DNA from: Candidatus Woesearchaeota archaeon
Lineage (GTDB): Archaea; Nanobdellota; Nanobdellia; Pacearchaeales; GW2011-AR1
Reading direction: 5' to 3'
DNA: 64,000 bases
Assembly: GCA_964547875.1 (NCBI GenBank)
Contig: CAZJPE010000005.1
Location: 27,543-91,542 of the forward strand
Positions 1,372-57,529 of the stretch are shown piece after piece (positions within the stretch are counted from its first letter, which is position 1; each line of letters opens with the position of its first letter). Position numbers and translations under genes: made by a program. Below the pieces are notes generated by a model, which saw only the letters and a program-made list of their open reading frames with translations, did no database searches and was not told where the DNA came from.

Positions 1372-1405
1372 AGAAAATCTCTAAAACAAAACAATATAAA
1401 TCTTC

Positions 1406-1975: not shown

Positions 1976-2017
1976 AAAAATACAAATCTATATTAATCCT
2001 CGTTACTTAAGAATCAA

Positions 2018-2725: not shown

Positions 2726-2875
2726 TTATCCCGTTAAACGAATAACTATTATAAACTCATAAATAAACACAACTCAATCTTCAGCATCAGAAAAATTGAT
2801 CCTTTTTCTCCAAATTCACTCCAATTTTTCCTCATTTAATCTTTATTAAGTTCGTTTATTCTAATTATTCCGAAC

Positions 2876-3577: not shown

Positions 3578-3700
3578 ACCCTTATACTATTTAAATTTTG
3601 CGTTTTTAAGCCCTATTAAGGCAAACGAAGAAATCAAATTTAAAATTAACAAAAAATAAAATAAACACCATAAAATTTCCATAAACACCCCAAAATCAGT

Positions 3701-3718
3701 TTTAAACAGCTGTTTAAA
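3701..3718. promoter_or_regulatory. 18-bp perfect palindrome TTTAAACAGCTGTTTAAA flanked by four direct ATAAACACC repeats. It is a candidate operator in the divergent promoter region.
   Basis: The palindrome is self-complementary. ATAAACACC occurs at 3661, 3681, 3715 (TTAAACACC) and 3725. It lies between divergent genes 2876-3577(-) and 3905-4264(+). Confidence 0.45.
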
Positions 3719-3904
3719 CACCCATAAACACCCCTATCGTCGATAAACGAAGTTTACCTTACCTTGCTTAAAAAATCAACATTCTTTTCCTAGCTCTTCA
3801 ATCCTCTCAAATATGAAATTAAAACCAGACAAAAGAGAAACTTATTTAAACATACTCTTCTTTTAATTAAAACATTTTCAATAGAATGAAAGGAGGTAAT
3901 TATA

Positions 3905-4264
3905 ATGGCAAATACACAAAAAACCTTTGCACTGATTTTAGGCATAGTATTGCTTCTCGTTGGCATAATTGGATTTATCAACAATCCTTTAGTAGGCGAT
4001 AACAGATATTTTGGAACAAATACCTTTCAAGACATACTGCATCTAATAGCAGGCGCAATAGGCGTCTATGTCGGAACAAAAGGAAGGGGCCCAACATACA
4101 ATTCAACAATAGGATGGATTGGCATTGTTTTAGGCATTCTTGGATTTATTCCAGGAATAAAAGGCCTGCTGCTTAATTGGTTTAATATAAACACAGAGAT
4201 AAGCGTTTTACACGTAGTAATAGGGATTGTTGCGCTGGCAGTCTATTACAAAGCAAGCAAGTAA
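3905..4264 (+). CDS. Small integral membrane protein (3-4 TM helices).
   Basis: Highly hydrophobic and Gly-rich (ILGIVLLLVGIIGFINNP..., IGWIGIVLGILGFIPGIKG). RBS-like aggaggt lies 8 nt upstream. Confidence 0.5.
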   Translation: MANTQKTFALILGIVLLLVGIIGFINNPLVGDNRYFGTNTFQDILHLIAGAIGVYVGTKGRGPTYNSTIGWIGIVLGILGFIPGIKGLLLNWFNINTEISVLHVVIGIVALAVYYKASK

Positions 4265-4293
4265 ATAATAAGCCATCTTTTTTCTTCTTTTTT

Positions 4294-4509
4294 ATGAATT
4301 TTAAACTTCTTTTCTTAATAGGCTCGATCCTAACATTCTTAGGCCTTTTCTGGATGCTCCTTCCTCACGCTTTTCACGATAAAATCATAGAGAATCAGCA
4401 CATTATCCACATTATTCAAGGCCTAATTCCAACATTACTAGGCCTAATCATGATGGTAAATTCAGAAAATAAGCTAAAATATCTAAGCAAAAACAAAAAC
4501 TTCAAATAA
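4294..4509 (+). CDS. Small membrane protein (2 TM).
   Basis: 71 aa, hydrophobic segments. Tandem with 3905-4264. Confidence 0.35.
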   Translation: MNFKLLFLIGSILTFLGLFWMLLPHAFHDKIIENQHIIHIIQGLIPTLLGLIMMVNSENKLKYLSKNKNFK

Positions 4510-4572
4510 AGTTATCTCACATGAATTTATACACATAAAAAACCGAAAAAACCCCAAATTTTCTCCCAATAT

Positions 4573-4627
4573 CAAAAACATTAGCCACAATAATTCAAGG
4601 CACGAAGTGCCGTCCGCGCCCGACAAA
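4573..4627. repeat. Copy A of a 53-nt conserved element with a perfect GGCAC-GAA-GTGCC hairpin.
   Basis: caaaaacattagccacaataattcaaggcacgaagtgccgtccgcgcccgaca. A second copy at 5288-5340 has one mismatch. Confidence 0.8.
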
Positions 4628-4658
4628 CAATTATAAACGATATCTATCTAATAATTTT

Positions 4659-4949
4659 ATAAACAACATTATCTTTGAAATCGTCGATAAAACAGGAAAA
4701 AAGATAATACTGACTAAAGAAAGATGGACACATATAAGGCAAAAACATGGACTTATTGAAAATCCAGAAGAGATAGAGCAAACACTTACTAATCCAATAA
4801 AAATCATTTTTATCGAGGAGAAAAACAAAACATATTTCTATAACTATTTCAAACATAAGCACAAATCCAGATTTTTAAAAGTTATAGTTAAATATATAAA
4901 TAATCAAGGTTATGTAAAATCAGCGTATTTCACAAGAAGCATAAAATGA
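4659..4949 (+). CDS. DUF4258-like (toxin-like) protein. The ORF has no canonical start codon: it is either a pseudogene or uses a non-canonical start.
   Basis: Frame is open from 4539. It encodes ...IILTKERWTHIRQKHGLIENPEEIEQTLTNPIKIIF..., and its TGA overlaps the ATG of the DUF2283 gene (ATGA at 4946-4949). There is no in-frame ATG, GTG or TTG. It is not in the ORF table. Confidence 0.3.
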   Translation: MNNIIFEIVDKTGKKIILTKERWTHIRQKHGLIENPEEIEQTLTNPIKIIFIEEKNKTYFYNYFKHKHKSRFLKVIVKYINNQGYVKSAYFTRSIK

Positions 4950-5191
4950 AAGGAAAAATGGAAATTTACTATGACGAAGAATTAGACTACTTAGAGATAT
5001 TCGTACAGAATCCTCCTCCAAACTACGGCGAGGATATCGAAGAAGATATAACTCTTTTTAGAGACGAAAATACAGACGAAGTTGTAGGAATAGGGATCCA
5101 AGAATTCAAAGAAAAAACAAAAAACCTCAAAGACATTAAATTACAACTCCCCTTTGAAATCAACTTTCTCCAATTACCTATAAATAAATAA
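4946..5191 (+). CDS. DUF2283-family small protein (antitoxin-like partner of DUF4258).
   Basis: MEIYYDEELDYLEIF...DEVVGIGIQEF matches the DUF2283 signature (YD-E-D-LYI). Start overlaps the upstream DUF4258-like ORF. Confidence 0.5.
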   Translation: MKGKMEIYYDEELDYLEIFVQNPPPNYGEDIEEDITLFRDENTDEVVGIGIQEFKEKTKNLKDIKLQLPFEINFLQLPINK

Positions 5192-5194
5192 TAT

Positions 5195-5265
5195 AGCTAA
5201 AACTTCCTCACATCTCCAACAACTTTTAGCATAAGCAAAAAGTTCGGGTTAAACGAAAGATTTTT
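5195..5265. repeat. Intergenic cassette-boundary repeat, family R1, full copy 1.
   Basis: agctaaaacttcctcacatctccaacaacttttagcataagcaaaaagttcgggttaaacgaaagattttt. Confidence 0.8.
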
Positions 5266-10514: not shown

Positions 10515-11339
10515 CTATCTATCACTAAATGATTTGCTTATCTTTATATTCCAGAAACTCGGCAATGGATTATCTACAAATCCTTTAAAATTATCAGAAT
10601 AAATATAAGTCAATCCTTTGTAATTTTTATATCTCTCAAATCCATTTTCAATTTTATCATAAATATCTCTAATTATCTTTCTTTCAAAATTCTTCTGCAA
10701 CAATGAGGGTTTTTTCAAAACAAGATAATCTGCCTGCCTTAATGCGTTCACGTCGATATTAGAAGAATTCTGCGATATGAATAAAACACTTATGCTTTTA
10801 TGTCTTGCTATTAAAATCAGCTCGCTTAATAATTTATTCGCACTGCTCATTGCCTTTCTCGAGCTGAACAATATTCCTCCCTCGTCAACTAAAATAAATG
10901 AATTATTTTTCGCCTGCGAAGCATCCTCAATAACTTCTATCCAGGAAGGCATTTCTTCTTTCTTAAAACCCAAGGCAAAAATCTTCTTCTTCTTTTCAGA
11001 ATATAAATTCTCAATAAAAGACAATCCAAAAGCAGTTTTTCCAGAGCCTCTTGCTCCCACAATAATTCCTATTTTACTATCAGCGCCAATAACAGAGTTT
11101 TCAAAGGAATTAAATTTTCCCCTCTCTGATTTTACAACTTTAATTTCCTGATAATCTGCAGTCATTGAAGCTCTCTTTTTTTCAATTTCTTTTTTTCTGA
11201 AAATTCTGCTTATCTCCTTAACTATGTCATAGCATCCCACTATAAAATAGTATGGTATCTTTATAATAAACCATAAGAACTTGATTAAGCTGACAAATAA
11301 GACTTTTAATAAATTAATTTTCTTTCTCTTTTTTGCCAT
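10515..11339 (-). CDS. P-loop NTPase with N-terminal TM helix (Zot/AAA-like).
   Basis: GIIVGARGSGKTAFG (Walker A). ILVDEGG (Walker B). N-terminal LLKVLFVSLIKFLWFIIKIPYYFIVG is hydrophobic. Confidence 0.5.
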   Translation of the reverse strand: MAKKRKKINLLKVLFVSLIKFLWFIIKIPYYFIVGCYDIVKEISRIFRKKEIEKKRASMTADYQEIKVVKSERGKFNSFENSVIGADSKIGIIVGARGSGKTAFGLSFIENLYSEKKKKIFALGFKKEEMPSWIEVIEDASQAKNNSFILVDEGGILFSSRKAMSSANKLLSELILIARHKSISVLFISQNSSNIDVNALRQADYLVLKKPSLLQKNFERKIIRDIYDKIENGFERYKNYKGLTYIYSDNFKGFVDNPLPSFWNIKISKSFSDR

Positions 11340-11399
11340 TATAACTCCTTTAACAAATTATAAAAAAGAAGTTTATAAATATCCTGTTTCTTTAAACTT

Positions 11400-14186
11400 T
11401 CATCTATTTCTTCTTGCTAATGTATAATATCCAACAACTCCTAATATAATAATTACTCCAATTATCAACCATAATATGCCCTTAGATATAGGTTTGGCTT
11501 CTGAAGGAGTTTCAGTAGGGGGAGGAATTTGCGCTTGCGCAGCCTCTTCAACAACCCTCTCAATTTTTTCAGCAATTGCAAAGAAGCTAAATGACATCAA
11601 TTCTACTTCAAAATACTCGTTTTCAGAATCAGAATTTATATATTTTGTTTCTAATTCATTCCATTGATTAGAATTTACATCATACCTAAACAATACTACT
11701 TTATCTTTTGTTAGCCCATTACTAATTAGCCAAGATTTTTCAACCTGCAATGTTATCACGCCTTTCTTTATATTATTTTCCAAATTTCGTGACTGTATTT
11801 CTAAATATTTATAGACCTTCCCAGATTTCTCAACACTTACATTTACGGGCTTTCCATCATATTTTATAACAGTTACCTTTACATTTTGTGCAGGATTATT
11901 AACTTCAATTGATATTTCTTTTAATCCGATCTCCTTATCATTTATCTTCATTATTGTTACATTTCCAGGCGTTATTTTTGTCCAACTATTTGTTTTTGTA
12001 GTTTTGTTAGTTGCTGTTACAGCACCACTGCCCCCGCCCCCACTAGAGGTACTAGTAGAGGTTCCAGGAGAAGACGAAGCAGGAATGGCTGCCCCGGTTA
12101 TACTCGGTCCAGTTCCAGAAAAATGTGGCAATCTTACCCATATTTGATTTGAGGTCGTGTTGATATAACAAGGGTTTGTAATATTAAATAATGTGGAGTT
12201 AGTAGTGCAAGTTATGTTATTTAAAAGATACTGCCAATCATTTTTCTTATTAGAATAATGAGAGAAGTTTCCTGCAAAAGCAGTAGAATTCGTACCATTA
12301 ACAGTAGCATTCCATATAACATTCCAATTATCGTCATAAAAAACAGGAATACTTATGTTGACAGGTTGTGTATCATTTAATCCCGTGCTTGCAGATTCGG
12401 AATAAGGAACAGAAACTAAAACATAATCATATACTGTAGGTCCGCTAGATCCGAATCTTAAGGCAGCACTGAAATCATTTCCTGATGTTCCATTCTTTGT
12501 TTTGTCATCAAATAAAGCATCCGGCGGACCAGACGCCATCATATCAACATTTACATAGTGTACTAAAATGCCCGCTGTTCCCATTCTAAAGCTTAGTTTT
12601 CCTCCCCCAATTATTGCAGACATAGGATTAAAGTCCTGCATATTTGTAGAACTCCCTATTACACAAGCGCCAGGAGGATCCGGAACATCGCATGTCAAAT
12701 TTGAAATATAAAGCCCCATTGTTATAGACGACGAACTTAATGCGCTATCAATGGCTTGTGGATTAAATGAATTTATTGTGATGTTACTCACATTTCCATT
12801 TGCATTATTGTCAGTTATAAGCTGGGCAATAGTAGGAGCAATTCTTTTAGGAGCATAATTTCCTCCTCCTACAAAGATATTCATTTCTTTAATTCCTGTG
12901 ATATTTAATAAAGGAATTGAGAAATTTCCACTACTTGATTGTCCAACATCTTCAACCCATGTAAATTCAATTGCCCCATAATTGGAATAATCAACAGTTG
13001 TTTCAATATGCACAGAAGATTGGCTCAAACTGCTGTTTGTTGCGTTAACTAATTGGAATACTTGTTTAGCTACGCCCCTATTTTTCTTTTGGGCAAAATT
13101 ATTTGCATTGTCCAAACTAAAGTTCGAACTGGCTCCTATTAGACCGTACATTGAGAAGTTAATTCTTACCCCCGCAGCACCATAAGATAAACTTATATTA
13201 GCAACCCCGCCATAATACCGGCTTCCATTGCGCGCAGTGGCAAATAACAAATAATTCGCGGTTTCAGCAGAGGCGGGCAAGGTTATATTATAGAATCCGC
13301 TAGTAAGGTTAAAAAGATCAGTAAGTCCAGTCCCAATAAACGTGCTTAAATTAAATGGCATGGCTCCAAACGTAGCATGGACCATATTACCCGGCTCAAG
13401 CATAAACGGTACGACTGTAAACTCGTCCCAGCCACCAGTGCTCGTAACATTGCTGGCATTGATAAAACCTGTAATTTGAGGCAAACTAAGGGTTATATTA
13501 AATTGCTTATAAAGCGTTCGCGTAGTAGCATTATATCGGGATATATTCCCAGAAGTTGTAACTATATTGTAACTGTTAGTAGATGTAAAATTATTCCAAT
13601 TAAAGAAAGCAGGCAAACTTTGATTAGGAAAGACAGTAATAGAATAATTCCTATCCCTAGGAACAACTATATTCGCCTCAAGAACCCCGTCACCAAAATT
13701 ACTCGCAATTAGATAGCCGAGTGCAGAATCTTTAATTTGATAATTAAACGGAATTCTCCCTCCCGACGAATTAATTGCAGTAATATTAATTGTTCCGGCT
13801 TCTCTTAAATAAAATAAATTATTGCGTAACTGAGTAAAAACGAACACAGGGAAAGCAGGCAAACTTTGTCCAACATAATCGACATATGAACCGTTTTTAT
13901 GGGTTATAAGGGGCTCATATAACCAATTTACGCTTTCAGGAATAGTTATATTAAACCAACCGCTCGCATTTGTAGTTGTAGAATTATATCCTGCAGACAC
14001 AAAACCATTTACACCACCCGAAAAAATATTTCTCATGGTTATATTAATTATAGAATTATTCAATGCGTTTCCATTAATATCATAAACAGTCCCGTTAAAC
14101 TCAAAAGCGCTAACTAGTCCAATAGTTGCAAACATATATATTGATATCACAAAAATCAAAAAGCTCAAATATCCGGTTTTCATCAC
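11400..14186 (-). CDS. Large cell-surface glycoprotein (S-layer-like). Signal peptide, about 45 N-x-S/T sequons, Ser/Thr/Gly linker, C-terminal TM anchor.
   Basis: 928 aa. N-terminal MMKTGYLSFLIFVISIYMFATIGLVSA. STSTSSGGGGSG linker. C-terminal GILWLIIGVIIILGVVGYYTLARRNR. Confidence 0.6.
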   Translation of the reverse strand: MMKTGYLSFLIFVISIYMFATIGLVSAFEFNGTVYDINGNALNNSIINITMRNIFSGGVNGFVSAGYNSTTTNASGWFNITIPESVNWLYEPLITHKNGSYVDYVGQSLPAFPVFVFTQLRNNLFYLREAGTINITAINSSGGRIPFNYQIKDSALGYLIASNFGDGVLEANIVVPRDRNYSITVFPNQSLPAFFNWNNFTSTNSYNIVTTSGNISRYNATTRTLYKQFNITLSLPQITGFINASNVTSTGGWDEFTVVPFMLEPGNMVHATFGAMPFNLSTFIGTGLTDLFNLTSGFYNITLPASAETANYLLFATARNGSRYYGGVANISLSYGAAGVRINFSMYGLIGASSNFSLDNANNFAQKKNRGVAKQVFQLVNATNSSLSQSSVHIETTVDYSNYGAIEFTWVEDVGQSSSGNFSIPLLNITGIKEMNIFVGGGNYAPKRIAPTIAQLITDNNANGNVSNITINSFNPQAIDSALSSSSITMGLYISNLTCDVPDPPGACVIGSSTNMQDFNPMSAIIGGGKLSFRMGTAGILVHYVNVDMMASGPPDALFDDKTKNGTSGNDFSAALRFGSSGPTVYDYVLVSVPYSESASTGLNDTQPVNISIPVFYDDNWNVIWNATVNGTNSTAFAGNFSHYSNKKNDWQYLLNNITCTTNSTLFNITNPCYINTTSNQIWVRLPHFSGTGPSITGAAIPASSSPGTSTSTSSGGGGSGAVTATNKTTKTNSWTKITPGNVTIMKINDKEIGLKEISIEVNNPAQNVKVTVIKYDGKPVNVSVEKSGKVYKYLEIQSRNLENNIKKGVITLQVEKSWLISNGLTKDKVVLFRYDVNSNQWNELETKYINSDSENEYFEVELMSFSFFAIAEKIERVVEEAAQAQIPPPTETPSEAKPISKGILWLIIGVIIILGVVGYYTLARRNR

Positions 14187-26827: not shown

Positions 26828-28212
26828 GTAAAAATAATTTCTTAATGAGCGAAGAAGACCTTCCTCTTTATGACCTTCCACAAATATTTGCAGCTTCTAC
26901 TACATGGTTTAAAGCTGGAATGAAAGATACTATTGCTACATTTGACTTGATTGTAAGAGAAATGCCGCCCCATAGAAATTTCCTTATTTTTAATGGATTG
27001 GAAGAAATTGTCAAGGGTATTTTGAACTGGAAATACAAAGAGGAAGATGTTCAATATCTTCTTAATGCAAGTCTTATCACATCAAAATTTGCAGAATATC
27101 TTAGAAACTTCAAATTTGGCGGCACAGTTTATGCAATGAAGGAGGGAACTGTCTTTTTCCAAGGAGAAACTATTGTAAGAATTACAGCACCCCTTATTGA
27201 AGCAAATCTTCTTACTATGTTTCTTATGAATACTTTATCAGGAAATACAATGTTTCTCTCAAAAGTTATCAGAAGTGTTATTGCTGCAAAACCAAAAATA
27301 TGCTTGGGAGTAGCCGGCTTACGTGCACAAAGCTTTGAGTCTGCTCTAAAATGTGCAAGGGCATCTTACATTGCAGGAGCAATTGGAGGCAATTCTGTGC
27401 CTGCTGTTGCTAAAAAATTGAATACTCCTCTTATTCAGCCACTTACAGTAGCTTACCATGCTGTCATTAAGTCTTTTCCAACAGAGTTAGAAGCTATGAG
27501 GAATATGGCTAACTTATTCAGAGGTAGAATAAGCCTTATGGTTGATACTTATGACTTTAATCAAGGAATTAAAAATGCTATTATAGTAGCTAAAGAATTA
27601 AAACAAAAAGGCCTTTCTTTATATGGAATAATGATTGATAGTGGAGATTTATCAAAGCTCTGTATTCAAGCAAGAAAGATGCTAGATGAAAATGGATTTC
27701 AAGATATTAAAATTACTATTGCCAGTAATCTTGATGAATATAAGATTCAAGAATTAAATGAGAAAAATATTCCAGCAAATGCGTTTCTTATTGCTACAGA
27801 GGCCATATCTATCCCTGACGCTCCTAAATTAGAAACGATTTACAAATTAGCTGAATTGAGATCTCAAAATAAAATTACTTACTGTGCAAAATTCGCCCCA
27901 GGAAAAGAAAGTTATCCAGGAAAAAAACAAATATTTAGAATTAAGAAAGAAGGAATTATTGAAAAAGACATTATTGGATTGGAAGACGAAAATCTCGGAG
28001 AATCACTTTTGATTGAAGTAATTAAAGATGGTAATTTAGTTTATGATCTGCCTAATCTGGATTATATTAAGCAATTTGTCAATATGCAAATTGGTCAGTT
28101 ACCAAGGCATCTTTTAGAGTTAGATAAACAACATAGCTTAAAAGTAGAGATCAGTCAAAAATTAGGCGAATTATTTGATAGAGTAAAAGAAGAACATAAT
28201 CCCTTTCATTAG
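26824..28212 (+). CDS. Nicotinate phosphoribosyltransferase-family protein.
   Basis: 462 aa. Its length and internal layout fit the NAPRTase/PncB family (N-terminal domain then the conserved TYDF motif region: MVDTYDFNQG). ATGA overlap with the upstream gene. Confidence 0.55.
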   Translation: MSKNNFLMSEEDLPLYDLPQIFAASTTWFKAGMKDTIATFDLIVREMPPHRNFLIFNGLEEIVKGILNWKYKEEDVQYLLNASLITSKFAEYLRNFKFGGTVYAMKEGTVFFQGETIVRITAPLIEANLLTMFLMNTLSGNTMFLSKVIRSVIAAKPKICLGVAGLRAQSFESALKCARASYIAGAIGGNSVPAVAKKLNTPLIQPLTVAYHAVIKSFPTELEAMRNMANLFRGRISLMVDTYDFNQGIKNAIIVAKELKQKGLSLYGIMIDSGDLSKLCIQARKMLDENGFQDIKITIASNLDEYKIQELNEKNIPANAFLIATEAISIPDAPKLETIYKLAELRSQNKITYCAKFAPGKESYPGKKQIFRIKKEGIIEKDIIGLEDENLGESLLIEVIKDGNLVYDLPNLDYIKQFVNMQIGQLPRHLLELDKQHSLKVEISQKLGELFDRVKEEHNPFH

Positions 28213-28287
28213 AAAATCAAGTTAGAATCCCTTTCAAATAAAATAATCTGACAAGGAATAATATATCCAATAAAAAACAAGACTAAA

Positions 28288-28473
28288 TTATCTTTCAAGT
28301 TGCCTTTCTTTTCTTCTCTTAACTTTATCTAAATTAGAAATTTCCTTCTCATAATAATCTGCTCTTTCTATGTTATCCTCTTCTATTGCAATTTCTCTTT
28401 TTCTTTTATGAATATTTATCTGCTCTTTCAAAGACGCAATTCCTTTCTCAAGCCTTTTTGATCTTTTCACCAT
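28288..28473 (-). CDS. Small basic protein, partner of the AbrB-NTase gene. Paralog of 9163-9369.
   Basis: 61 aa. ADYYEKEIS is conserved with 9163-9369 (VDYYEKEIA). Overlaps the 3' end of 28448-29260 by 26 nt. Confidence 0.45.
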   Translation of the reverse strand: MVKRSKRLEKGIASLKEQINIHKRKREIAIEEDNIERADYYEKEISNLDKVKRRKERQLER

Positions 28474-29260
28474 ATTTTTTTATTTCCTCTCGAAGAAGGT
28501 TAATTAATTTTTCAATTAATTCTATTCTAACTTTTTCTTTAATTTTTTTATTATTTTTTATGCTTTTATAAAAATCATAAATTTTATTAATCTCTTCCTC
28601 ACTCAATTCAGTTTTATAAATTAGCCACTTCCTAAATTCGTTATTAAAATATTTTTTATTTTTTAAAATACAATTCATCATATAAATGCCTCTTAATCTT
28701 AACAATAAGGAATAAATAATTTCTTTAGATTCGAGATTTTTGCCTTTTATTCTATCTAATTCAACAATCTTTTTGTTAATGCCCATTATTCTTTTGCATT
28801 CTTTAATATAATTACTAAAATTTTTTAAAGAAATATTTATAGAAATAAGTTCTTCCAATAACGACTTATTAATTATAGGTTTAGCTTCTAATAAACTAGG
28901 CAATATCATAATAGGACTTTTTTTAATTGTACTTTTTATGCTTTTAAGGGCATATATATCAATATCATAAATTCCAGAGATTATGTGTTTCCTGATATTT
29001 TTTGAGATAGCAATAATATCTATGTCGGAATCTGCTCGCTGTTCGTTTCTTGCATAACTCCCTACTAAATAAATGCCGATAATGTCGTTTAAATAAGGAT
29101 CAAGAATGTTTAAAATCTCATTTTTAATCTCGTTAGTTCTGTCTATCAAAATAATCTTGACTTGCTTTCCAAGCCATTCTCTAGGCAATAAAACTCCAGC
29201 ACCATTGCCCCATCTAACAACATTTAACATTTCTTCCATGTTTAAACATAGTTTAAACAT
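28448..29260 (-). CDS. AbrB/SpoVT-like plus nucleotidyltransferase fusion protein. Paralog of 9335-10129.
   Basis: VVRWGNGAGVLLPREWL. GIYLVGSYARNEQRADSDIDIIAI. About 45% identity to 9335-10129 over the full length. Confidence 0.6.
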   Translation of the reverse strand: MFKLCLNMEEMLNVVRWGNGAGVLLPREWLGKQVKIILIDRTNEIKNEILNILDPYLNDIIGIYLVGSYARNEQRADSDIDIIAISKNIRKHIISGIYDIDIYALKSIKSTIKKSPIMILPSLLEAKPIINKSLLEELISINISLKNFSNYIKECKRIMGINKKIVELDRIKGKNLESKEIIYSLLLRLRGIYMMNCILKNKKYFNNEFRKWLIYKTELSEEEINKIYDFYKSIKNNKKIKEKVRIELIEKLINLLREEIKKYGEKIKKA

Positions 29261-31213: not shown

Positions 31214-32077
31214 ATGGCAAGAATTAAATCTGAATTAGTGCTTCTTGAGCCAATCATAGAAAAATATTCATTTGCAAGAATCCTTGACGCAGACGAAAAA
31301 AGGGAATTATATCAAGAAGTAAATGAAATTGTAGAAAGAGATTACGAAAACATTCCGGCTTTTCCAGCTTATTGGAAATTTAATGAAGAGACAGGGAAAA
31401 TAAATGGCTCAAATCTTCCTATACTTATTCTTGCTAACAAAATTCTCGCCAAGAAAAACCAGAGAACACTTACATTCGTAGAAGGAATTAAATTAGATAA
31501 AGCTAAAAAATTAAGCAATGAAGTTTATAGGGATTTTGGCTTAGTAGTTTATAGTCCAGGAGAGCCAAACAAGGAAATAGCTGAATTGCTTGTTAAAGAA
31601 GCAAATAGAAGAAATTGGGAATTGCCAGTAATAGCCCATCCATCTGCTTTAGAAATTCCTTCAAGAAAGGCGAATAATAATTATAGAATAGACATACTAT
31701 TTTCAGATAATGATTCTTTAATCATTTCAGGAGAAGAAGCAAGAGAAGTTCTAAAAGAATTCTACGCTCATAATTCTGGCGTTTGCAGGCTGGACCGCGG
31801 CGGGCTCGGCTTCTGGGATGCCGGCTGGGACCTCTTGGCCAGCTCTTATGCTGACGGTCGGGTGGATTGGATTCGTGGCGAAGCCACGCACGAAAATTTA
31901 GAGAGAGAATTATTCGCTGAAATTGAAAGAAGTGCACAAAAATCACCTTATTCAACAAAAGAAGCATTAAAAATGTATAAAGTTGTTGAAGAAATAAGAA
32001 AAGGCGATGTAAAAATTTCTGATTTAGAATCAAGATTATCTCAAGTTTCAAGTTTTCTTGAAAATCTCTCTAAATAA
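31214..32077 (+). CDS. Hypothetical protein, paralog A of a recently duplicated pair. It carries a GC-rich hypervariable segment (candidate DGR variable region).
   Basis: 287 aa. About 88% nucleotide identity to 52236-53066 over roughly 560 nt upstream of the island. The island encodes ...NSGVCRLDRGGLGFWDAGWDLLASSYADGRVDWIRGEAT... Confidence 0.6.
   Translation: MARIKSELVLLEPIIEKYSFARILDADEKRELYQEVNEIVERDYENIPAFPAYWKFNEETGKINGSNLPILILANKILAKKNQRTLTFVEGIKLDKAKKLSNEVYRDFGLVVYSPGEPNKEIAELLVKEANRRNWELPVIAHPSALEIPSRKANNNYRIDILFSDNDSLIISGEEAREVLKEFYAHNSGVCRLDRGGLGFWDAGWDLLASSYADGRVDWIRGEATHENLERELFAEIERSAQKSPYSTKEALKMYKVVEEIRKGDVKISDLESRLSQVSSFLENLSK
31790..31891 (+). other. Hypervariable GC-rich island A (candidate DGR variable region).
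   Basis: 102 nt at over 65% GC, with GC-rich third codon positions, inside an AT-rich gene. It differs from island B at about 30 positions, almost all in codon positions 1-2. Confidence 0.5.
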
Positions 32078-32170: not shown

Positions 32171-32863
32171 GTGTCTAAAAAATACCGTCCAGACAAAGAA
32201 GAATACATAGAAGGAATTGGTCAATTTCTATATAATATAAAAATTCCTTCATTTGACAAATCTCTCGAGGCATTGGCAGATATGGGTGCTTCTATTCCAT
32301 CAACAAGAGATTTTGCCTTTGTAATAATAAAAACAGGAAGAGAAATCTATGGCCCTGTAAGAGAAGCGATAATTCATTATCCTAACGAAGGGAATTTATT
32401 AATAAGAAACTCCTTAATTCTTGAATCTAAAGCGTTGGCAGAATCAGGCGCAATCGCCCATGCGCATGGAAAAGAGATTTATCTTGAAGGAGAACACGAG
32501 GAAAAAGCAAGGCTCCTTCTTGAAAAAGCAAAAAAATATCCTGAAAATGACGAAGCAATATTTTTAAGAAATCATCTCCTTATTTCAACACAAAGATTCT
32601 CTGAAGATAAAAGAATAAAATGGCTTTTTGGCGATACGCAAGAAGATATTAATGCTATTTTAAATAAAGAACATATAAAAGAGATATCCTTCCATGTCGA
32701 CTCAAAAGACGAAGTCAATAGGCATGCGAAACCCTATACAAACCAATTATGGCTTACGCTCTTTAGCAAAGACATGTCGGGTTTTTCAGGGAATTTAAAA
32801 TTTTTTCATAATAGTATCTCTATTCATGCTGTTAAAAAACCTAAACCAGATCAATCCCACTAA
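32171..32863 (+). CDS. Hypothetical protein (230 aa).
   Basis: Clean ORF, no recognisable motif. Confidence 0.4.
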   Translation: MSKKYRPDKEEYIEGIGQFLYNIKIPSFDKSLEALADMGASIPSTRDFAFVIIKTGREIYGPVREAIIHYPNEGNLLIRNSLILESKALAESGAIAHAHGKEIYLEGEHEEKARLLLEKAKKYPENDEAIFLRNHLLISTQRFSEDKRIKWLFGDTQEDINAILNKEHIKEISFHVDSKDEVNRHAKPYTNQLWLTLFSKDMSGFSGNLKFFHNSISIHAVKKPKPDQSH

Positions 32864-35745: not shown

Positions 35746-38379
35746 CTAGAAATTAGGCTGTTTAATAAATCTTGCGTCAATAGGCTTTCCCTGCCTCTTT
35801 TCCAATTCAGCTCTTACTCTTCTATTCTCAAAAATCTTAAATATGGGTATTTCCCACATTCCTGTCCTTTTTCCGTCTATTTTCTTAAATGCATAAGTTA
35901 TTCTCTCCCCTGTCCAGCCAGTCCCCTTTAGTTTCTTTCTTATCTCATTATCACTCAATCCTGATACTCTCGCATTATAAATAAAATTGACTAAATTATA
36001 AAGATCATTGCTGTTCTTGAATAAATGTCTTTCATATCTTCTCTTATACCATTCCTGCAATATAATGTAGAGAACAAGCGTCCCTAAAACAACGATGCCT
36101 AGCCAGAAAAATAGCTTTTTCCAGGGAAATGGTATCTCACATTTAGGATCCCCAAATTCACAAATCTCTTTTTCGTCAATAACAAAGCCTTTCACAGGAG
36201 CAATATAAGCTCCAAGCTCTGCAACCTCAATCTTTTCCTTAATTGCGAATTCAATATCCTGCTTCGTTTCAATACCAACATAAGCCGCACCGCCCTCATC
36301 AACTGGTTTCTGTCCGTAATCTTGCGAGAAAATCAAGCTGTCAAATGGATAATCAATAAACAGCAATCCTGCTTCTGCTCTTTCTTTAGGGCTTATTTTA
36401 AGCTTAAATCTAGTCAGAATGTCTTCCTTTGCTCCATCTGAAAAAACAGAAATTAGTTCAAATTCCACATCTGTTTTATAATTTGCCTCGCCCCATCCTA
36501 TTATCAGCTCTCTTAATTTATCATTATCTGCTGCATCTGTTCCAGAAATGCTCTCAAAATATCCCACATCAATATTCTCAAATCCAATTGCAATAGGCAA
36601 GATTCCTTCTATACCACCTACAATTCTGTAAGGAATATTCAAATCCAATAAACTGCTTACAATGTCTATGTAATCCTTGTCAGAGCTTGCATTCTTAAAT
36701 GATTTTTCTAAATCAGACAGCGACTTATTTAATTCAGCAATGTCAATCTCTTCTCCAATCACTTCCTGCAAAAATAAGGGAAAACTCTTTATCTCTTTAT
36801 CTATATCTTTCAACCTAATTTTATAGTCTGCTATTGTTTTATTTGCAGACTCTTTTGCATTCCCCGCAATAATATTAAACTTTTTAATCGCTATTACTCC
36901 GTCTTTCCTTTTCAATTCAACTTCTATTGTAAATGTCTTAGCTTCTTTATATCTATGATTTATGCTCTTTCCATTGGCTTCTTCAATTACCCCATCTCCA
37001 AAATTCCATTTAGACGAACTAATATTAAAAGATGTTACTGCTTCAAATCTAGTTTCCAAACCCAAATACGCAAATCTCGTATTCAAATTAAAATCAAAGC
37101 TTTCCTCTATATCAATATTTTCCCTAAATATGAGATTATCATTCAAATACAAAGCAAATTTATCTTCTTTTGTTCCAATAGGTATTGTAAATTCCGCAGG
37201 CTCCAAGTTGATTTCAATTCCTTTCGCGTTTATTGTCGCAGGCTTTACAGAAACTTCATAAAATTCAGCAGGCGCGTCAAATAAAATATTTCTGTCATAA
37301 AAGCTCAATTTTACATTATTCAGATTAATATTCTGGGATAACCCGCTTAGCTTTACAGGAACAACGCAATATGGCTTGCATTCAATTCCATCATCTTTTC
37401 CATATCTCTCATTAATATAATTATATATCTCATCTTCTAATTCACTATCGTTAACTCTCGTGCCTGCTTTTCCATATTCCAATGCCCTGGCAAATATCTC
37501 AAAATCAGAATTATCTGTCCCGCATCTTGGATTTTGACTCTCTGATTTTATCCTATATTCCACATTACTGGAAAAATCCCCACTAATGCAAACCAATAGC
37601 TTACTCTCAACAATAGAATTATATTTTATAACGCATTCAAGATTTTCCTCTGCTTGTGTAGACTGCGGAAGTTTGCACTCTCCTAATTTATTATAATCAA
37701 GCTCCCTCAGGCTAATCTTTAAGTTTCCATTGTTCTTTAATTTTTTAACCTTCGCCCCTACAGCATATGCTGGCGCAGCAGGCAATGTTATGTTCTCGCA
37801 TATCTCGTCTTGCGTTATCGTCGCCTCTCTATATGCTCCGCTGTTTAAGTTATTGTTAAAACATCCATAATTATTGCTAGAGCATGAGCTGTTTGTATAT
37901 TCACTAGTTGTCATAACATCTTCTTTATCTGCTAAAACATCAATAAAAAGAGGCGTCTTGCACGAGTTTGCGATATCGCTATTTACAGAAAATTCAATAT
38001 CATTTATAGAGCTAATTTCCTCTCCCTCTATCCTTAATCCAATAATTTTATCATTTTCAAGATTAAATTCTCTAATTGCGTTTCCAAGCACGTATTCGTC
38101 AGCGCAATTAGCGCTGCTACATTCAAAATCACCGCCTTCAACAAATTTATTCGCTTTTAACAAGCCAAATAATGTAATGTTCCCTATAAAATTGCTTTTC
38201 AAGAGAGAATCAGCTCTTTCCTGCTTCAAACTCAAATTCACGCTTCCCTTAATTATCTCGCCAGCTCTGTAATCCTTTTGCAAACTATTCTCATGATATT
38301 CAAAAGCTCCCACAATGCTGATAAATAAAATATTCATTAAAATTATCAAATAGCAAACAAAAACCTCTCTTTTTCCCAT
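35746..38379 (-). CDS. Large cell-surface protein (877 aa) with signal peptide, C-terminal TM anchor and about 90-aa cytoplasmic tail.
   Basis: N-terminal MGKREVFVCYLIILMNILFISIVGA. C-terminal WKKLFFWLGIVVLGTLVLYIILQEWYKRRYERH then a basic tail. Confidence 0.55.
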   Translation of the reverse strand: MGKREVFVCYLIILMNILFISIVGAFEYHENSLQKDYRAGEIIKGSVNLSLKQERADSLLKSNFIGNITLFGLLKANKFVEGGDFECSSANCADEYVLGNAIREFNLENDKIIGLRIEGEEISSINDIEFSVNSDIANSCKTPLFIDVLADKEDVMTTSEYTNSSCSSNNYGCFNNNLNSGAYREATITQDEICENITLPAAPAYAVGAKVKKLKNNGNLKISLRELDYNKLGECKLPQSTQAEENLECVIKYNSIVESKLLVCISGDFSSNVEYRIKSESQNPRCGTDNSDFEIFARALEYGKAGTRVNDSELEDEIYNYINERYGKDDGIECKPYCVVPVKLSGLSQNINLNNVKLSFYDRNILFDAPAEFYEVSVKPATINAKGIEINLEPAEFTIPIGTKEDKFALYLNDNLIFRENIDIEESFDFNLNTRFAYLGLETRFEAVTSFNISSSKWNFGDGVIEEANGKSINHRYKEAKTFTIEVELKRKDGVIAIKKFNIIAGNAKESANKTIADYKIRLKDIDKEIKSFPLFLQEVIGEEIDIAELNKSLSDLEKSFKNASSDKDYIDIVSSLLDLNIPYRIVGGIEGILPIAIGFENIDVGYFESISGTDAADNDKLRELIIGWGEANYKTDVEFELISVFSDGAKEDILTRFKLKISPKERAEAGLLFIDYPFDSLIFSQDYGQKPVDEGGAAYVGIETKQDIEFAIKEKIEVAELGAYIAPVKGFVIDEKEICEFGDPKCEIPFPWKKLFFWLGIVVLGTLVLYIILQEWYKRRYERHLFKNSNDLYNLVNFIYNARVSGLSDNEIRKKLKGTGWTGERITYAFKKIDGKRTGMWEIPIFKIFENRRVRAELEKRQGKPIDARFIKQPNF

Positions 38380-52235: not shown

Positions 52236-53066
52236 ATGGTAGAAACAGCATCTCAAGACATTGTATTACTTGAGCCAATAATAGAAAAATATTCAGTTGC
52301 AAGACATTTAGGCTCTGACGAACAAAGAAGTCTTTATGAAGGTATAAATGAAATTGTAGAAAGAGATTATAAAAATGCTCCAGCTTTTCAAACTCGTTGG
52401 GATTTCAATGAGCAAACAGGCGAAATAAATGGCTCTAATATCTTTAGAGCAATTCTTGCCAACAAAATTCTCGCAGCAAAAGGAGAAAGAACACTTACTT
52501 ATGAAGAAGGAATGAAATTAGATAAAGATAAAAAATTAAGCAATAAAGTTTACAGAGATTTTGGCTTAGCAGTCCATAGTTTAAGAGAACCAAACAAGGA
52601 AATAGCTGAATTGCTTGTTAAAGAAGCAGAAAAAAGAAGTCTGGAATTGCCAGTATTAGTTCATCCTTCTGCTTTAGAAATTTCTTCAAGAAACGTTAAT
52701 AATAAATATGGGATAAACGTACTCTTTTCAGATAATGACTCTTTAATCGTTTCAGGAGAAGAAGCAAGAGAAGCTCTAAAAAAGTTTCATGCTTATAATT
52801 CTGGCGTTTGCAGGCCGTGTCGCTACTGGGACGGCGACTGGGTTGCCGGCTGGGTTGACTTGGCTGGCTCCAGTGCTTGCGGCAGGGTGGATTGGGTTCG
52901 TGGCGAAGCCACGCGTGAAAATTTTCAGCAAGATGATTTAATGAAAAAGGAAAGCGAACTTTACACTTCTAAACAAATTATACAGGCAGCAAGCGAAATA
53001 GATTTAAATCTTTTAAGAGAGAACAAATTAGAAGACATCTTACTTAGAAAATTAAGGAATAAATAA
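52236..53066 (+). CDS. Hypothetical protein, paralog B of the duplicated pair, carrying the second hypervariable GC-rich segment.
   Basis: 276 aa. ...NSGVCRPCRYWDGDWVAGWVDLAGSSACGRVDWVRGEAT... Similarity to paralog A ends abruptly at the 3' edge of the island. Confidence 0.6.
   Translation: MVETASQDIVLLEPIIEKYSVARHLGSDEQRSLYEGINEIVERDYKNAPAFQTRWDFNEQTGEINGSNIFRAILANKILAAKGERTLTYEEGMKLDKDKKLSNKVYRDFGLAVHSLREPNKEIAELLVKEAEKRSLELPVLVHPSALEISSRNVNNKYGINVLFSDNDSLIVSGEEAREALKKFHAYNSGVCRPCRYWDGDWVAGWVDLAGSSACGRVDWVRGEATRENFQQDDLMKKESELYTSKQIIQAASEIDLNLLRENKLEDILLRKLRNK
52815..52916 (+). other. Hypervariable GC-rich island B (candidate DGR variable region).
   Basis: Same length and register as 31790-31891. 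The flanks are near-identical, but inside the island 14 of 34 codons differ, mostly NNC/NNT codons changed at positions 1 and 2. Confidence 0.5.
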
Positions 53067-54284
53067 TCAAGGCTTCAGCTTCTCTTCAGCTTCCTCAACT
53101 CTTTTGTTAAAACTGCTTTCTCCCTTGGTTTTTCTATATTTCCAGAATATAAATAAAACTATAACGAAAAGCACTCCTGCTATTGTATATCCAATCCATG
53201 GGCTGTATCCCCCAGCTTCTTCTTTTGCGCATTTTCCAATACAGCACGCTCCGTCTAAGCTTGCCCTAACTTCTCCGTCACAGCTCTCTCCAGCAGTGCA
53301 GATAATCCCATTCAAATTTGGGCAATATTCTAATTTTTCGTATTCTTCTAAATAAGGCGTTTCTGCCTCGTCCTGCTTTTCAGTAAATTTAATCATAACA
53401 GGCAGCTCAATAAAGAAACCATCGCTTCTAATAAAAATGCTTTGATTAATTCCGTTTTTTTTCATTTCTTCGTCTACATTTCCTATGAGGCTTATGTTTA
53501 ATTCAGCAGCTCCCTTGGCTTTAAGATTGATATTTTCTGCAGAGAGAGAAAATATTGTTTTATCATGCTCAATATTGACATTTATGTCTTCTTCTCCAAG
53601 ATTTATAATTTGAAATGGATATGTTGCCTTATCGCCTGAAAGCACAACGCTCTCAATGCTCTTAGGATTAATTTCAAGTGCGTTCTTTAATTTTGAAATT
53701 ATAAAAGCATGAAAAACATACTTGCCTATATTTGTCTCAATTAATCCGCTCCCGTTCACGCCAGCTATTGAAAACAAAATATCATTTCTTCCCGGCTTTA
53801 AAATAATTTCTCTCTCATTAGGAAAGCTTAAATTTATTGTTTTTTCAGAATCCTCATTCAATTGGATAGAAACAATAAAATCCTCTTGCGCAGAGATAAA
53901 TCCAGGCTTTATTGAATAATCAGTCAAGTTTTCTATAACAGAAAAATTCTGCCTGAAATCAGCAATCTCTGTCCTTCCAGCAGAAGTTGTAGCAATATTA
54001 TTTATAACAAGAGTATAATTATTTGCATTCTGAGGAGCAATTGCCCAGAGAAAATATTTATTCTCCAGTTTCCTTAAATCATATTCAATCGGAATAGCGA
54101 CATGCCCTCTAAAAAATTCAACATCTTTTTTGTCAATTGGCTCAAGAATATTCCCGCTAATCTCAATAATTATTGTCTCGCCTCTTTCATATTCTGCTTT
54201 TAAATCTGTTGAAACTGCACTAACACTCTCTAAAAATAAAAGAATTAGTGCACAAAAGAATATCAATATTTCTCTCTTTTTCAT
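53067..54284 (-). CDS. Cell-surface protein with signal peptide and a C-terminal Cys-rich - EEAGG - TM - basic tail module.
   Basis: MKKREILIFFCALILLFLESVSA. C-terminal CPNLNGIICTAGESCDGEV..CCIGKCAKEEAGGYSPWIGYTIAGVLFVIVLFIFWKYRK. Confidence 0.5.
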   Translation of the reverse strand: MKKREILIFFCALILLFLESVSAVSTDLKAEYERGETIIIEISGNILEPIDKKDVEFFRGHVAIPIEYDLRKLENKYFLWAIAPQNANNYTLVINNIATTSAGRTEIADFRQNFSVIENLTDYSIKPGFISAQEDFIVSIQLNEDSEKTINLSFPNEREIILKPGRNDILFSIAGVNGSGLIETNIGKYVFHAFIISKLKNALEINPKSIESVVLSGDKATYPFQIINLGEEDINVNIEHDKTIFSLSAENINLKAKGAAELNISLIGNVDEEMKKNGINQSIFIRSDGFFIELPVMIKFTEKQDEAETPYLEEYEKLEYCPNLNGIICTAGESCDGEVRASLDGACCIGKCAKEEAGGYSPWIGYTIAGVLFVIVLFIFWKYRKTKGESSFNKRVEEAEEKLKP

Positions 54285-54292
54285 GTTAATTT

Positions 54293-57200
54293 TTATATAG
54301 GGTTTAAGTTAAATATTTCCAATTTATTTAGACTCATATTAATAGATCTTGTTTGTTCTATAAAACCAGATTTACTCACATTAATTGTATAATTTGAGAG
54401 AAAGAATTTTCCGGTAACATTCCTTTTGTACTCAGCAAGATGCTCTCTAGCGATACCTCCATTTATATCGGTTATAACATTAAACCATGAAAGACCATTC
54501 TTATCAGATGCGGATACATTAGCACTAGCAATTGGATTACCAGAAGAATCATTCACCTGCACATTCAAATACCATGCAAAATAAAAAAATGAATTGCTTG
54601 CGTTCCAGGAAAAAATATTATTTTTAAGAGTTGTATTGACAAGAGTTGCATTGTTTCTATTATTTGTAAAATACAGTTCATAATCAGACCCAGAAGATGC
54701 TCCAGAGCCAATAAACGAATCGTATACAATGACGCTACCATTTTCACCTGAGAAATAGATAATTGGATCATTTCCACCTCCTGCTGTAAGATTAGAATTG
54801 TAAACTGTTGAACTATTCCCAGATAAATCTAAAGATATAACAGTTCCAGAACTACTGCTAGCATAAGTTATTATGTCTCTTAATGTGAAATTATTTGCAT
54901 TAACGTCTATTCCTGTACCGCCTAAGCCAGCCGTATTATAAGTAATAATTCTTGGAGAACCCCCAAACAAGGTTATATTGTCTGCAGATATAGTAAAGCA
55001 AGTTCCTGTAGATGATATATTTGGACCAAGAGAATAAACTACATTTGCTCCATTTAGAGTGGCACAAGATGTAATCCCTCCTAATGTAAATACCTCATCT
55101 CTATTTGATGTAATGTTAATACTTCTAATTAAAGTTGGATAACCTAATTTAGAAACATTAAATGTGTAGTTATTCTGATTTCTCGTTACAGAAGAATTCC
55201 TCCAATACTGAAGAATTTCCTGTCTTGAAATTCTGCCATTAGCATTTGTTAATTGAGAGAAAGCAATTGCTCCAGATACATTTTTTGCTGTAACATTTGC
55301 ATTTTCAATAGAATTTCCAATGGCATTATTGACTTGTGCATCAAAGTACCAATAGACATTTGCTCTTGCTGTAGAACTTGAATCAAAAGCTGGTCCTGAA
55401 GTATCCGTAAGCGTTACATTCTTAAAGTTTACAATTCCTGAAGAAGGATAACTGAAGTAAACATCGTTTGTTGTAGAGGCATTAATAAAAGAATCATAAA
55501 ACATGTTACCATCAACAGATTCTACAAAATAAATCCCCTCCGAATTGATATTATTAGCTGTTCTAATCTGATTATTTCTAAACGTATTATTAACACTTGC
55601 CTCAATATAAATTCCTCTTGCGCCATTTGTTGAAGTTGTTATTGTGTTATTGCTTATTATATTGAAATTAGAATTACTTGGAGAAATTCTAATTGCATCT
55701 GCTGATCCAGATGTAATAACACTGTTGTTATTAATAAGATTATAAGAACTTGCATCTAAACGAATGCCATAACTGTTTAATCCAGATGTATTAATTATAT
55801 TATTACTAAACGCGTTATTATTTGCGTTTCTGAAATATACATTATATTTACTTGTTCCGCTAGTGTTTCCTTCTTCAAATATTAAATTCTTTATTATTGT
55901 CTGATTCATTCCGAAAACATAAACTCCATATCCAGAGCTTCCGCCAACACCATATGTAATCTTATATCCTTTTCCATCTAAAGTAATATCATTTGCAGTA
56001 ATCGTGAAGCATGTCCCATTTGATTGAACATTGTTTTGCAATTTATAACTTGTAAAAGAAACATTTAATTCCTGACATGAGGTAATATTAGTTAATAATT
56101 CATTTCTTATCTTAAATGATTTAGACACAGACGAATTTGTGTTTATTCCGTCAGTTGCAAGCACTTTAACCTTGCATTCCTCACACTCTTCCAGTTCAGA
56201 AGAGTTTAATTCCAATTTTGTATCATTAAAGTCTATTTCTAATGTTGTATAATTGCTTCCATTATCAGCACTAAATAATACTGCATATGCTAAAGTATCA
56301 TTATCTACATCAGTTCCATTCCAAGTTACATTAAATATCCTCTTTGTGAAAATCTGCCCTTCAAGATTTGTCGTTATATTTAGTGATGGCGTGTTTGCTG
56401 TGCGGTTTACTTCGTCTAAGATTTTAGTGTTATTCTTTATTAATATTTTAGTTACATTATTAGAAAATGGAAGAACAAATGCAAAGGCACTCACATTAAC
56501 TTCCGTAGTATTTCCTCCAATCTCAGTAACCAAAAATTGTGGTTCAAATTTTAATTCAAAAAGATTAGTGGCATTTTCCTCAACTATTAAAGAAAAATTG
56601 CCTATGGACGATTCATTTTGTATGTATCTCTCATCTAAAATATAAGAATAGTCATCAATTTCTACAGTTCCATTTTTATGAATCGCACCACTTATTAAAA
56701 TGCCAAAATCTACACTTAAGATACTTTCTAAAGAAGAAAAAATATCTAAAAGATGAACATAACTTTCGCTATCAATCCACCTTAAGGTTTCGTTATTTGC
56801 GCTGCCCATCATATTATATAAATTAATTATTCCATTTCCAGAGCTCCAAGGAATTAATTCTCCAAAGGTAGAAGTTGGACATCCTTCTGGATCGCTTAAG
56901 CATATTTGATCTAGAGAGCCATTATTATCCAAATCACCATTAGGGCATACTCCTAATTTTAATTTTTGTGTATGCCATTTATCACTAGAATGCTCGTCAC
57001 ATAAACCTAAAGTATGTCCTATTTCGTGAGCGGCACTATGTCTTACGCCTTCTTCAACTAAAACCGCGTTAGGACCATAAACTAAAAAAGAAATATTTCT
57101 AGAAACACTTATACCCTTGGTTCCATTTCTACCATGATTCGCGAACCAGCCATTAGGCAATATGCCAACTACCCTATCAGTAAATATATTACTTAACTTA

Positions 57201-57529
57201 CGACTTTTATATACATCTCTCAATAAAGGATATATCTCGCTATCATCTAACACAAAACCTATATTTGAATCAAAAATTTCTTCCTTTATTTTAATTAACA
57301 ATTCGCCATTAGCCAAAGGATAAGTAGAATTAATAAATTCTGTATTATTAAACACAGTTTCTGTAAAAGTTGAAGACTTCTCATCAATTGGAACAAAATC
57401 AATTTTGAAAGTCCGAGTATCTATTACATTTATGTTTATGCTACTAGAAATACCACTTACTATTCCCATTAATAAAATCGATATAACGGAAATAATAATT
57501 ATTTCGGCTGGATTATTTTTCTGTAACAT
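54293..57529 (-). CDS. Large secreted zincin metalloprotease with parallel beta-helix repeats and many N-glycosylation sequons.
   Basis: HSAAHEIGHTLGLCDEHS (HExxH). Long runs of NN(x)..SG..I repeats typical of right-handed beta-helix (PbH1). N-terminal TM/signal. Confidence 0.6.
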   Translation of the reverse strand: MLQKNNPAEIIIISVISILLMGIVSGISSSININVIDTRTFKIDFVPIDEKSSTFTETVFNNTEFINSTYPLANGELLIKIKEEIFDSNIGFVLDDSEIYPLLRDVYKSRKLSNIFTDRVVGILPNGWFANHGRNGTKGISVSRNISFLVYGPNAVLVEEGVRHSAAHEIGHTLGLCDEHSSDKWHTQKLKLGVCPNGDLDNNGSLDQICLSDPEGCPTSTFGELIPWSSGNGIINLYNMMGSANNETLRWIDSESYVHLLDIFSSLESILSVDFGILISGAIHKNGTVEIDDYSYILDERYIQNESSIGNFSLIVEENATNLFELKFEPQFLVTEIGGNTTEVNVSAFAFVLPFSNNVTKILIKNNTKILDEVNRTANTPSLNITTNLEGQIFTKRIFNVTWNGTDVDNDTLAYAVLFSADNGSNYTTLEIDFNDTKLELNSSELEECEECKVKVLATDGINTNSSVSKSFKIRNELLTNITSCQELNVSFTSYKLQNNVQSNGTCFTITANDITLDGKGYKITYGVGGSSGYGVYVFGMNQTIIKNLIFEEGNTSGTSKYNVYFRNANNNAFSNNIINTSGLNSYGIRLDASSYNLINNNSVITSGSADAIRISPSNSNFNIISNNTITTSTNGARGIYIEASVNNTFRNNQIRTANNINSEGIYFVESVDGNMFYDSFINASTTNDVYFSYPSSGIVNFKNVTLTDTSGPAFDSSSTARANVYWYFDAQVNNAIGNSIENANVTAKNVSGAIAFSQLTNANGRISRQEILQYWRNSSVTRNQNNYTFNVSKLGYPTLIRSINITSNRDEVFTLGGITSCATLNGANVVYSLGPNISSTGTCFTISADNITLFGGSPRIITYNTAGLGGTGIDVNANNFTLRDIITYASSSSGTVISLDLSGNSSTVYNSNLTAGGGNDPIIYFSGENGSVIVYDSFIGSGASSGSDYELYFTNNRNNATLVNTTLKNNIFSWNASNSFFYFAWYLNVQVNDSSGNPIASANVSASDKNGLSWFNVITDINGGIAREHLAEYKRNVTGKFFLSNYTINVSKSGFIEQTRSINMSLNKLEIFNLNPI

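Follow-up and report, generated by a model that had tools for sequence, protein, structure and literature searches.

Diversity-generating retroelements (DGRs), which use a reverse transcriptase to rewrite a ligand-binding pocket, are, to our knowledge, the only prokaryotic systems that alter a protein binding site on demand, and their presumed role in DPANN archaea is to tune the contacts made with host cells. A 2017 study by Paul and co-workers is said to have found them abundant in DPANN and CPR genomes. The 64,000-nt stretch of a Candidatus Woesearchaeota contig analysed here (the window) raises the question of whether two of its genes, each bearing a GC-rich island, are targets of such a system, and whether the system that wrote the islands is still at work. 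A first-pass annotation, made from the sequence alone, had proposed a DGR-like variable region (VR) in two recently duplicated genes. We refer to these two genes as gene A and gene B:

31214..32077, + strand: gene A, probable DGR variable (target) protein of 287 aa, intact ORF; predicted C-type-lectin-fold domain at about residues 8-225, then a helical C-terminal tail

52236..53066, + strand: gene B, paralogous probable DGR variable protein of 276 aa, intact ORF (P0003 in the family searches)

The two paralogues lie 21 kb apart. Their nucleotide identity had been put at 88%; blastn gives 80.4% across 658 nt, and a codon alignment gives 80.2% for codons 8-189. Because the N-terminal domains (N-domains) have a dS of 0.46 and a dN of 0.18, the duplication is old rather than recent as first supposed. 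Nor do the genes differ "almost only" in the island, since the two proteins disagree at 52 of 182 N-domain residues, and beyond codon 228 their tails are essentially unrelated. The stretch quoted as identical in both genes corresponds to codons 119-130 and indeed contains zero differences.

The island itself was delimited by alignment with the template repeats (TRs) of related genes described below:

31781..31865, + strand: VR-A, the span homologous to the relatives' TRs (codons 190-217), placed by aligning it in codon register to TRs and VRs from loci L001, L044 and L048

52806..52890, + strand: VR-B, in register with VR-A at an offset of +25025

In gene A, the TR profile matches 31771-31864 (nhmmer). 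The codon alignment of the two genes agrees that the islands are in register, and the 14 differences reported for a 34-codon segment are found again as 14 differing amino acids. The islands are GC-rich as described, with a GC content of 0.57-0.77 over codons 189-228 against about 0.3 elsewhere in the gene, and adenine makes up 8% of the VRs compared with 40% of the remainder of each gene. The non-variable bases of VR-A follow the pattern GTTTGCAGGC.G...CGC..C.GG..CGGC..CTGG. The changes between the genes had been placed at codon positions 1 and 2, with the third position kept. Within codons 190-217, genes A and B differ at positions 1, 2 and 3 in 10, 10 and 5 cases, respectively, which upholds the emphasis on the first two positions; the third is not strictly kept, as 5 of 28 third positions differ, all of them by C/T. 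The corresponding N-domain counts are 39, 23 and 46 (Fisher p = 0.04 for VR versus N-domain).

The ratio of substitution rates, omega, is 0.96 in the VR and 0.39 in the N-domain. At the 11 positions that vary across the family, all 22 codons of the two genes have the form NNY, for which the gene background is 46% (P ~4e-8), and 73% of these 22 codons are NNC against 11% in the background. The amino-acid divergence of the VR (12/28) is not significantly higher than that of the N-domain (52/182; p = 0.13). The VR is distinguished by the kind of change, as seen in omega and the NNY codons, and not by its amount. Moreover, the variable codons of both VRs fall where related templates have AAY codons; of the 13 AAY codons in the L001 template, 12 match positions at which VR-A and VR-B have different codons. 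The VRs of the window bear the sequence signature of DGR writing.

Neither protein matches any Pfam model. A word-indexed search yielded only 10 relatives, whereas 308 cluster representatives (clusters at 50% identity) came from an exhaustive profile search, with 67 scoring below 1e-30. Alignment of 86 sequences shows a conserved scaffold, SGVxRLxRxxxGxWxAxWxxLxxSxxxGRVDWVxGEAT, whose x columns are hypervariable; the invariant Trp/Gly residues that had been noticed between the variable ones are thus conserved in the 86 family members. In the 11 variable columns, 98.3% of residues are among the 15 amino acids accessible from AAY codons, against 79.6% in the N-domain background, and column 197 of the family holds G, R or W, that is, the NGG series. 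The AlphaFold2 model built from the 86-sequence alignment reached a pLDDT of 90 for the gene A protein, rising to 95.5 over residues 1-227, and it resembles CLec-fold structures only, among them the DGR proteins TaqVP and TvpA. According to this model, the VR would be displayed on a C-type-lectin fold. In the sequence databases, genes A and B each form a 90% cluster with one member, and population variants are not on record for either.

Evidence on the origin of the islands also comes from relatives that reside in complete DGR cassettes. P0007, which is 42% identical to gene A, is the second of two tandem paralogues in L001 (Nanoarchaeota MAG / JGI Ga0180008_1000202). About 180 nt downstream of P0007 lies a non-coding third copy of the island (L001:10983-11069), whose mismatches to the two VRs of the locus fall on TR adenines in 12 of 13 and 16 of 17 cases, and a DGR-type reverse transcriptase (RT) reading frame directly follows this TR. 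A metagenome scan added 25 further loci. The order target(-target)-TR-RT is found in L001, L044, L045, L048 and L056, and L055 and L066 carry a target and a TR without an RT. In L048, the TR/VR mismatches lie on TR adenines in 16/16 and 23/23 cases, as do 15/15 in L056. At every non-adenine base, third codon positions included, the two VRs and the TR of the relatives' cassettes are identical. The relatives' templates translate as RLNRNxNGNWNANWNNLDNSNxNGRM. Their RTs match RVT_1 and carry PLGN(M/L)TSQFFAN and Y(V/I)DD, which replaces the QGxxxSP motif anticipated in the first-pass annotation.

L044 and L045, which are 98% identical, derive from two different samples and offer a natural comparison. 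Over 2.28 kb spanning their target genes, all 18 differences fall within the two VRs and all 18 on TR adenines, and the RT region shows scattered ordinary differences. This confinement is direct evidence of a DGR diversifying members of the family in nature. Wherever a TR was found in a relative, it lies within ~500 nt downstream of the target gene. About half of the loci with enough flanking sequence, namely L003, L053, L061 and L063, are flanked by no TR and no RT. Taken with the predicted CLec fold, the target-TR-RT cassettes with their adenine-specific mismatches support the original proposal of a VR copied from an AAC/AAT-rich template, and we consider it very probable that the islands of genes A and B are true DGR variable regions of C-type-lectin-fold target proteins.

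Three observations on these loci stand apart from the argument. The motif GGCTCAG(N3-6)TGG(C/T)TAGG occurs between the TR 3' end and the RT start codon in 7/7 templates, with the TR 3' flanks at L001:11060-11095, L044:4845-4880 and L048:4665-4700 as well as in L055, L056 and L066, and it may be a spacer-RNA element for priming; between TR and RT, we found no Avd-like ORF in the seven templates. In L001, the RT adjacent to the TR (11095-11574) ends after ~100 homologous residues. A full-length DGR RT lies 6 kb off on the opposite strand (within the region L001:11763-18322). The two are separated by conjugation-like genes (TrbC/T4SS pilin, TraC-like ATPase) and a DNA methyltransferase, so that the RT seems to have been split or duplicated through an insertion or rearrangement. 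L053:93-1610 holds a tandem family pair whose VRs are only 71.5% identical, with many non-adenine differences, and TR and RT are absent from the 2 kb downstream; it is a second case of a diverged orphan VR pair like that of the window.

Both window genes also carry the cis elements expected of a homing target:

31856..31873, + strand: IMH-like 3' end of VR-A, GGTCGGGTGGATTGGATT, where GGTCGAATGGCT stands in related templates (IMH*-like, GG versus AA)

52881..52898, + strand: IMH-like 3' end of VR-B, GGCAGGGTGGATTGGGTT

31874..31888, + strand: hairpin/cruciform CGTGGC-GAA-GCCACG within the coding sequence of gene A, 6-bp stem with a GRA triloop

52899..52913, + strand: hairpin CGTGGC-GAA-GCCACG of gene B

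In the IMH-like segment, gene A has GGTCGGGTGG and gene B has GGCAGGGTGG, with GGTCGAATGG as the corresponding template sequence. Nanoarchaeal DGRs show the same GG/AA contrast (IMH TGGGGT versus IMH* TGGAAT) and a GRA-triloop hairpin within the target gene (PMC4372165). The hairpin of the window genes encodes the conserved residues R-G-E-A-T. Across 26 family sequences, its stem is paired in 97.4% of cells, with compensatory changes at 4 of 6 pairs (for example CGCGAC/GTCGCG, TGTCGC/GCGACG and TGCGGC/GCCGCA). The covariation score was reached by 0 of 500 shuffles, and every slid register collapses; at the protein level, GEA and AEG covary. Thermodynamic z-scores and folding energies of the hairpin are unremarkable, and its support is the covariation. 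The segment comprising the IMH-like end and the hairpin is 90.9% identical between genes A and B and also encodes the conserved beta5 strand. The ORFs, the IMH-like ends and the hairpins are intact in both genes.

Where, then, are the template and the RT? The sequence available around the genes was extended by L042, which covers 9.4 kb beyond the 3' end of the window on the same contig (ena:ERZ27284378:k139_112547, 114,134 bp) and brings the total to 73.4 kb. Neither blastn (word 7) with both VRs nor an nhmmer profile of the seven related TRs detected a TR in these 73.4 kb; only the two VRs themselves were matched. No RT emerged in the window from a six-frame scan for YxDD/QGxxxSP motifs or from a tblastn search using a DGR RT; L042 holds none, and the 114,134-bp contig carries none of the best 120 among 3544 RT homologues. 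Two RT candidates, P0046 and P0124, were set aside as belonging to other samples and carrying unrelated TRs. A pattern scan of genome contigs with the VR scaffold returned three DPANN contigs and ~33 chance bacterial matches. Directly downstream of both genes A and B, the place occupied by the TR in the relatives, there are unrelated genes. The 73.4 kb searched therefore lacks the template repeat with an RT beside it that the first reading had proposed to look for across the genome, and the working diversification system that it envisaged would, in this genome, be a hypothetical one. Both loci are "partial DGRs", each made up of the target with its VR and cis elements but with no TR or RT next to it.

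From the relatives, we infer that adenine-directed mutagenic retrohoming produced the VRs of genes A and B, with AAY-rich templates as the source. In the proposed mechanism, an AAC/AAT-rich TR encoding approximately R-L-N-R-N-R-N-G-N-W-N-A-N-W-N-N-L-x-N-S-N-x-N-G-R, as modelled on the relatives, would lie just downstream of the target gene(s). It would be transcribed and then reverse-transcribed by a DGR-type RT with misincorporation opposite adenines, and the resulting cDNA would replace the VR, with homing steered by the IMH-like 3' end of the VR and the GAA-loop hairpin behind it. About 11-13 pocket residues could each become any of 15 amino acids, with stop codons impossible, and the Trp/Gly/Arg scaffold would stay fixed by virtue of the non-adenine positions. 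By analogy with the templates of the relatives, roughly 10^13-10^14 VR sequences would be possible.

A comparison of the two VRs with each other bears on how many templates would be involved. VR-A and VR-B show six T/C differences at sites that are never adenine in any related template, namely at position 2 of codon 193 and at the third positions of codons 194, 206, 209, 211 and 215. These six differences exclude one shared present-day template and thereby the earlier idea that a single template repeat would match both islands. The dS of the VR, 0.39, is about equal to the gene-wide value of 0.46, and together with the six non-adenine differences this implies that no shared template has homogenised the VRs since the duplication. 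Either each VR is served by a template of its own elsewhere in the genome, or one of the two at least, and perhaps the pair, is a fossil.

We considered whether the islands might have arisen without any retroelement, as the ligand-binding loop of an ordinary duplicate pair under diversifying selection, with the GC content contributed by Gly, Trp, Arg and Ala codons. The absence of TR and RT from the window fits such an origin, as does a VR divergence (12/28) that is not significantly above that of the N-domain (52/182; p = 0.13). However, this origin would leave unexplained the exclusive use of NNY codons (22/22) with 73% NNC in an AT-rich gene, the drop of adenine to 8%, the match between variable codons and the relatives' template AAY codons, the covarying DNA hairpin in a coding sequence, and the cassettes of the relatives themselves; we regard it as very improbable. 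For VRs written by a DGR, two accounts of their present state have to be weighed. According to one, the TR and RT were lost from the lineage, and the islands are frozen products of past homing in what are now lectin-fold proteins of fixed specificity, subject to ordinary mutation and selection. The missing TR and RT in 73.4 kb are consistent with such a loss, the six T/C transitions at non-adenine sites and a VR dS close to that of the whole gene would represent drift since the duplication, and both components are likewise missing from roughly half of those family loci whose flanks are long enough (the ones named above). Paul et al. (2015) named this option for RT-less partial DGRs (PMC4372165).

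The intact ORFs, IMH-like ends and hairpins of both genes, in a segment that is 90.9% identical, speak against this account, albeit weakly since the segment encodes the beta5 strand; third positions that are still 73% C against an NNC background of 11% are less easily reconciled with it, and a DGR could sit in the other ~41 kb of the contig or elsewhere in the genome. We give the fossil account a chance just short of even. The other account holds that genes A and B are diversified in trans from elsewhere in the genome, either by one RT working with two distinct templates or by a pair of DGR cassettes. In its favour, the elements needed for homing are intact in both genes, the substituted fraction of adenine sites resembles that in VRs of active cassettes such as L048, and TRs without an adjacent RT in L055 and L066 make action in trans plausible within the family; several DGRs per nanoarchaeal genome are also documented (PMC4372165). 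Against remote service stands the position of the relatives' TRs, always within ~500 nt downstream, where the window has unrelated genes. It also calls for two separate templates, and the best 120 of 3544 RT homologues include none on this contig. It is a serious possibility, to which we assign somewhat less than an even chance, close to that of the fossil account.

Among the closest known systems are the DGRs of Nanoarchaeota DUSEL4 (Paul et al., 2015, Nat Commun, PMC4372165). They share with the window a DPANN host, a VR internal to the target gene, the GG versus AA contrast of IMH and IMH*, and a GRA-loop hairpin inside the target ORF. Their partial DGRs likewise consist of a target gene with its VR and cis elements only and were read there as fossils or as remotely served. 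The likeness observed is one of layout rather than demonstrated target homology, and the window comes from another genome and environment; unlike in DUSEL4, its two orphan loci are paralogues 21 kb apart whose scaffolds exclude a common template.

A structural counterpart is AvpA (PDB 5IOO), a Nanoarchaeota DGR variable protein of ~256 aa with a CLec fold bearing inserts (Handa et al., 2016, PMC5006420). As in the window proteins, its VR spans ~27 residues with ~12 AAY-derived variable positions and lies near but not at the C-terminus, its beta5 strand is encoded by the IMH, and an in-ORF hairpin and a helical C-terminal extension of ~46 aa are present (PMC5006420). It differs in the central aromatics, which are Trp201/Trp205 here and Phe185 in AvpA, and the tail of gene A is longer, with three predicted helices. 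Motifs listed as conserved among AvpA-like archaeal variable proteins are GxxVVVYAH, HPxxxPFxG and RFxGV. The 86-sequence family profile, run against all PDB sequences with hmmsearch, did not match 5IOO at E <= 10. We therefore file the family as presumably working like AvpA on the grounds of architecture, which matches by predicted structure and by VR and hairpin coordinates, with no sequence match to 5IOO at E <= 10. The bacterial and phage variable proteins Mtd (BPP-1), TvpA (2Y3C) and TaqVP (5VF4) differ in layout: their VRs lie at the extreme C-terminus, unlike those of the window genes, their hairpins are non-coding with a GRNA tetraloop whereas those of the window are coding, and they have an Avd accessory gene, where the cassettes of the window family have the RT directly after the TR with no intervening ORF.

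Work published in 2015-2017 already covers DGRs of archaea, their CLec-fold targets, GRA hairpins within coding regions and partial DGRs that lack an RT, and our finding leaves the existing knowledge of DGRs unchanged. It adds two more variable-protein genes to the DPANN DGR picture and puts on record a target family of considerable size (308 clusters, 50% identity) without Pfam annotation. It also provides an internal test for template sharing by dispersed VRs, based on non-adenine scaffold differences and the synonymous divergence of the VRs. A more far-reaching combination would have genes A and B diversified in trans by a distant RT with one template each, making the ~1-Mb genome host to a dispersed multi-template DGR network, and would see in the 308-cluster family, which lacks a Pfam model and detectable AvpA sequence similarity, a separate undescribed archaeal CLec-fold subclass; as a whole, we think this unlikely.

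Several further features of the window were noted in passing. The C-terminal tail of gene A (31940-32077, codons ~243-287, ...SPYSTKEALKMYKVVEEIRKGDVKISDLESRLSQVSSFLENLSK) is ~80% identical to the tails of P0009 and P0010, two proteins that are otherwise unrelated to gene A and whose bodies are homologous to the product of the next gene, 32171-32863 (BLASTP E = 7e-7). Such a tail is absent from gene B and other family members, and the resemblance suggests a swap by recombination with the neighbouring gene family. Homology of the gene at 32171-32863 to the target family itself found no support (hhalign probability 3%). No signal peptide is obvious by eye in either variable protein.

Large secreted- or surface-looking proteins adjoin or neighbour the variable-protein genes, encoded at 54293-57529, 53067-54284 and 35746-38379, all on the - strand; their features include a beta-helix with CarboxypepD_reg, a Cys-rich sequence with a C-terminal membrane anchor, and PKD domains. 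The 1-kb segment with the lowest GC content of the window (28001-29000; 0.24 against an average of ~0.33) overlaps the ORF 28448-29260 on the - strand. A helicase ORF with DEVH and SAT motifs (1-1380, - strand, 460 aa visible) runs off the window start and by eye resembles the Lhr/Ski2 type. Gene calls in 1-5200 are uncertain, as several listed ORFs are not on record as called genes. The protein encoded at 3905-4264 (DUF4383) is identical to one on a 1.4-kb contig from another public run (L068, Logan SRR8863434_142085), and therefore the same or a very close organism is present in SRR8863434.
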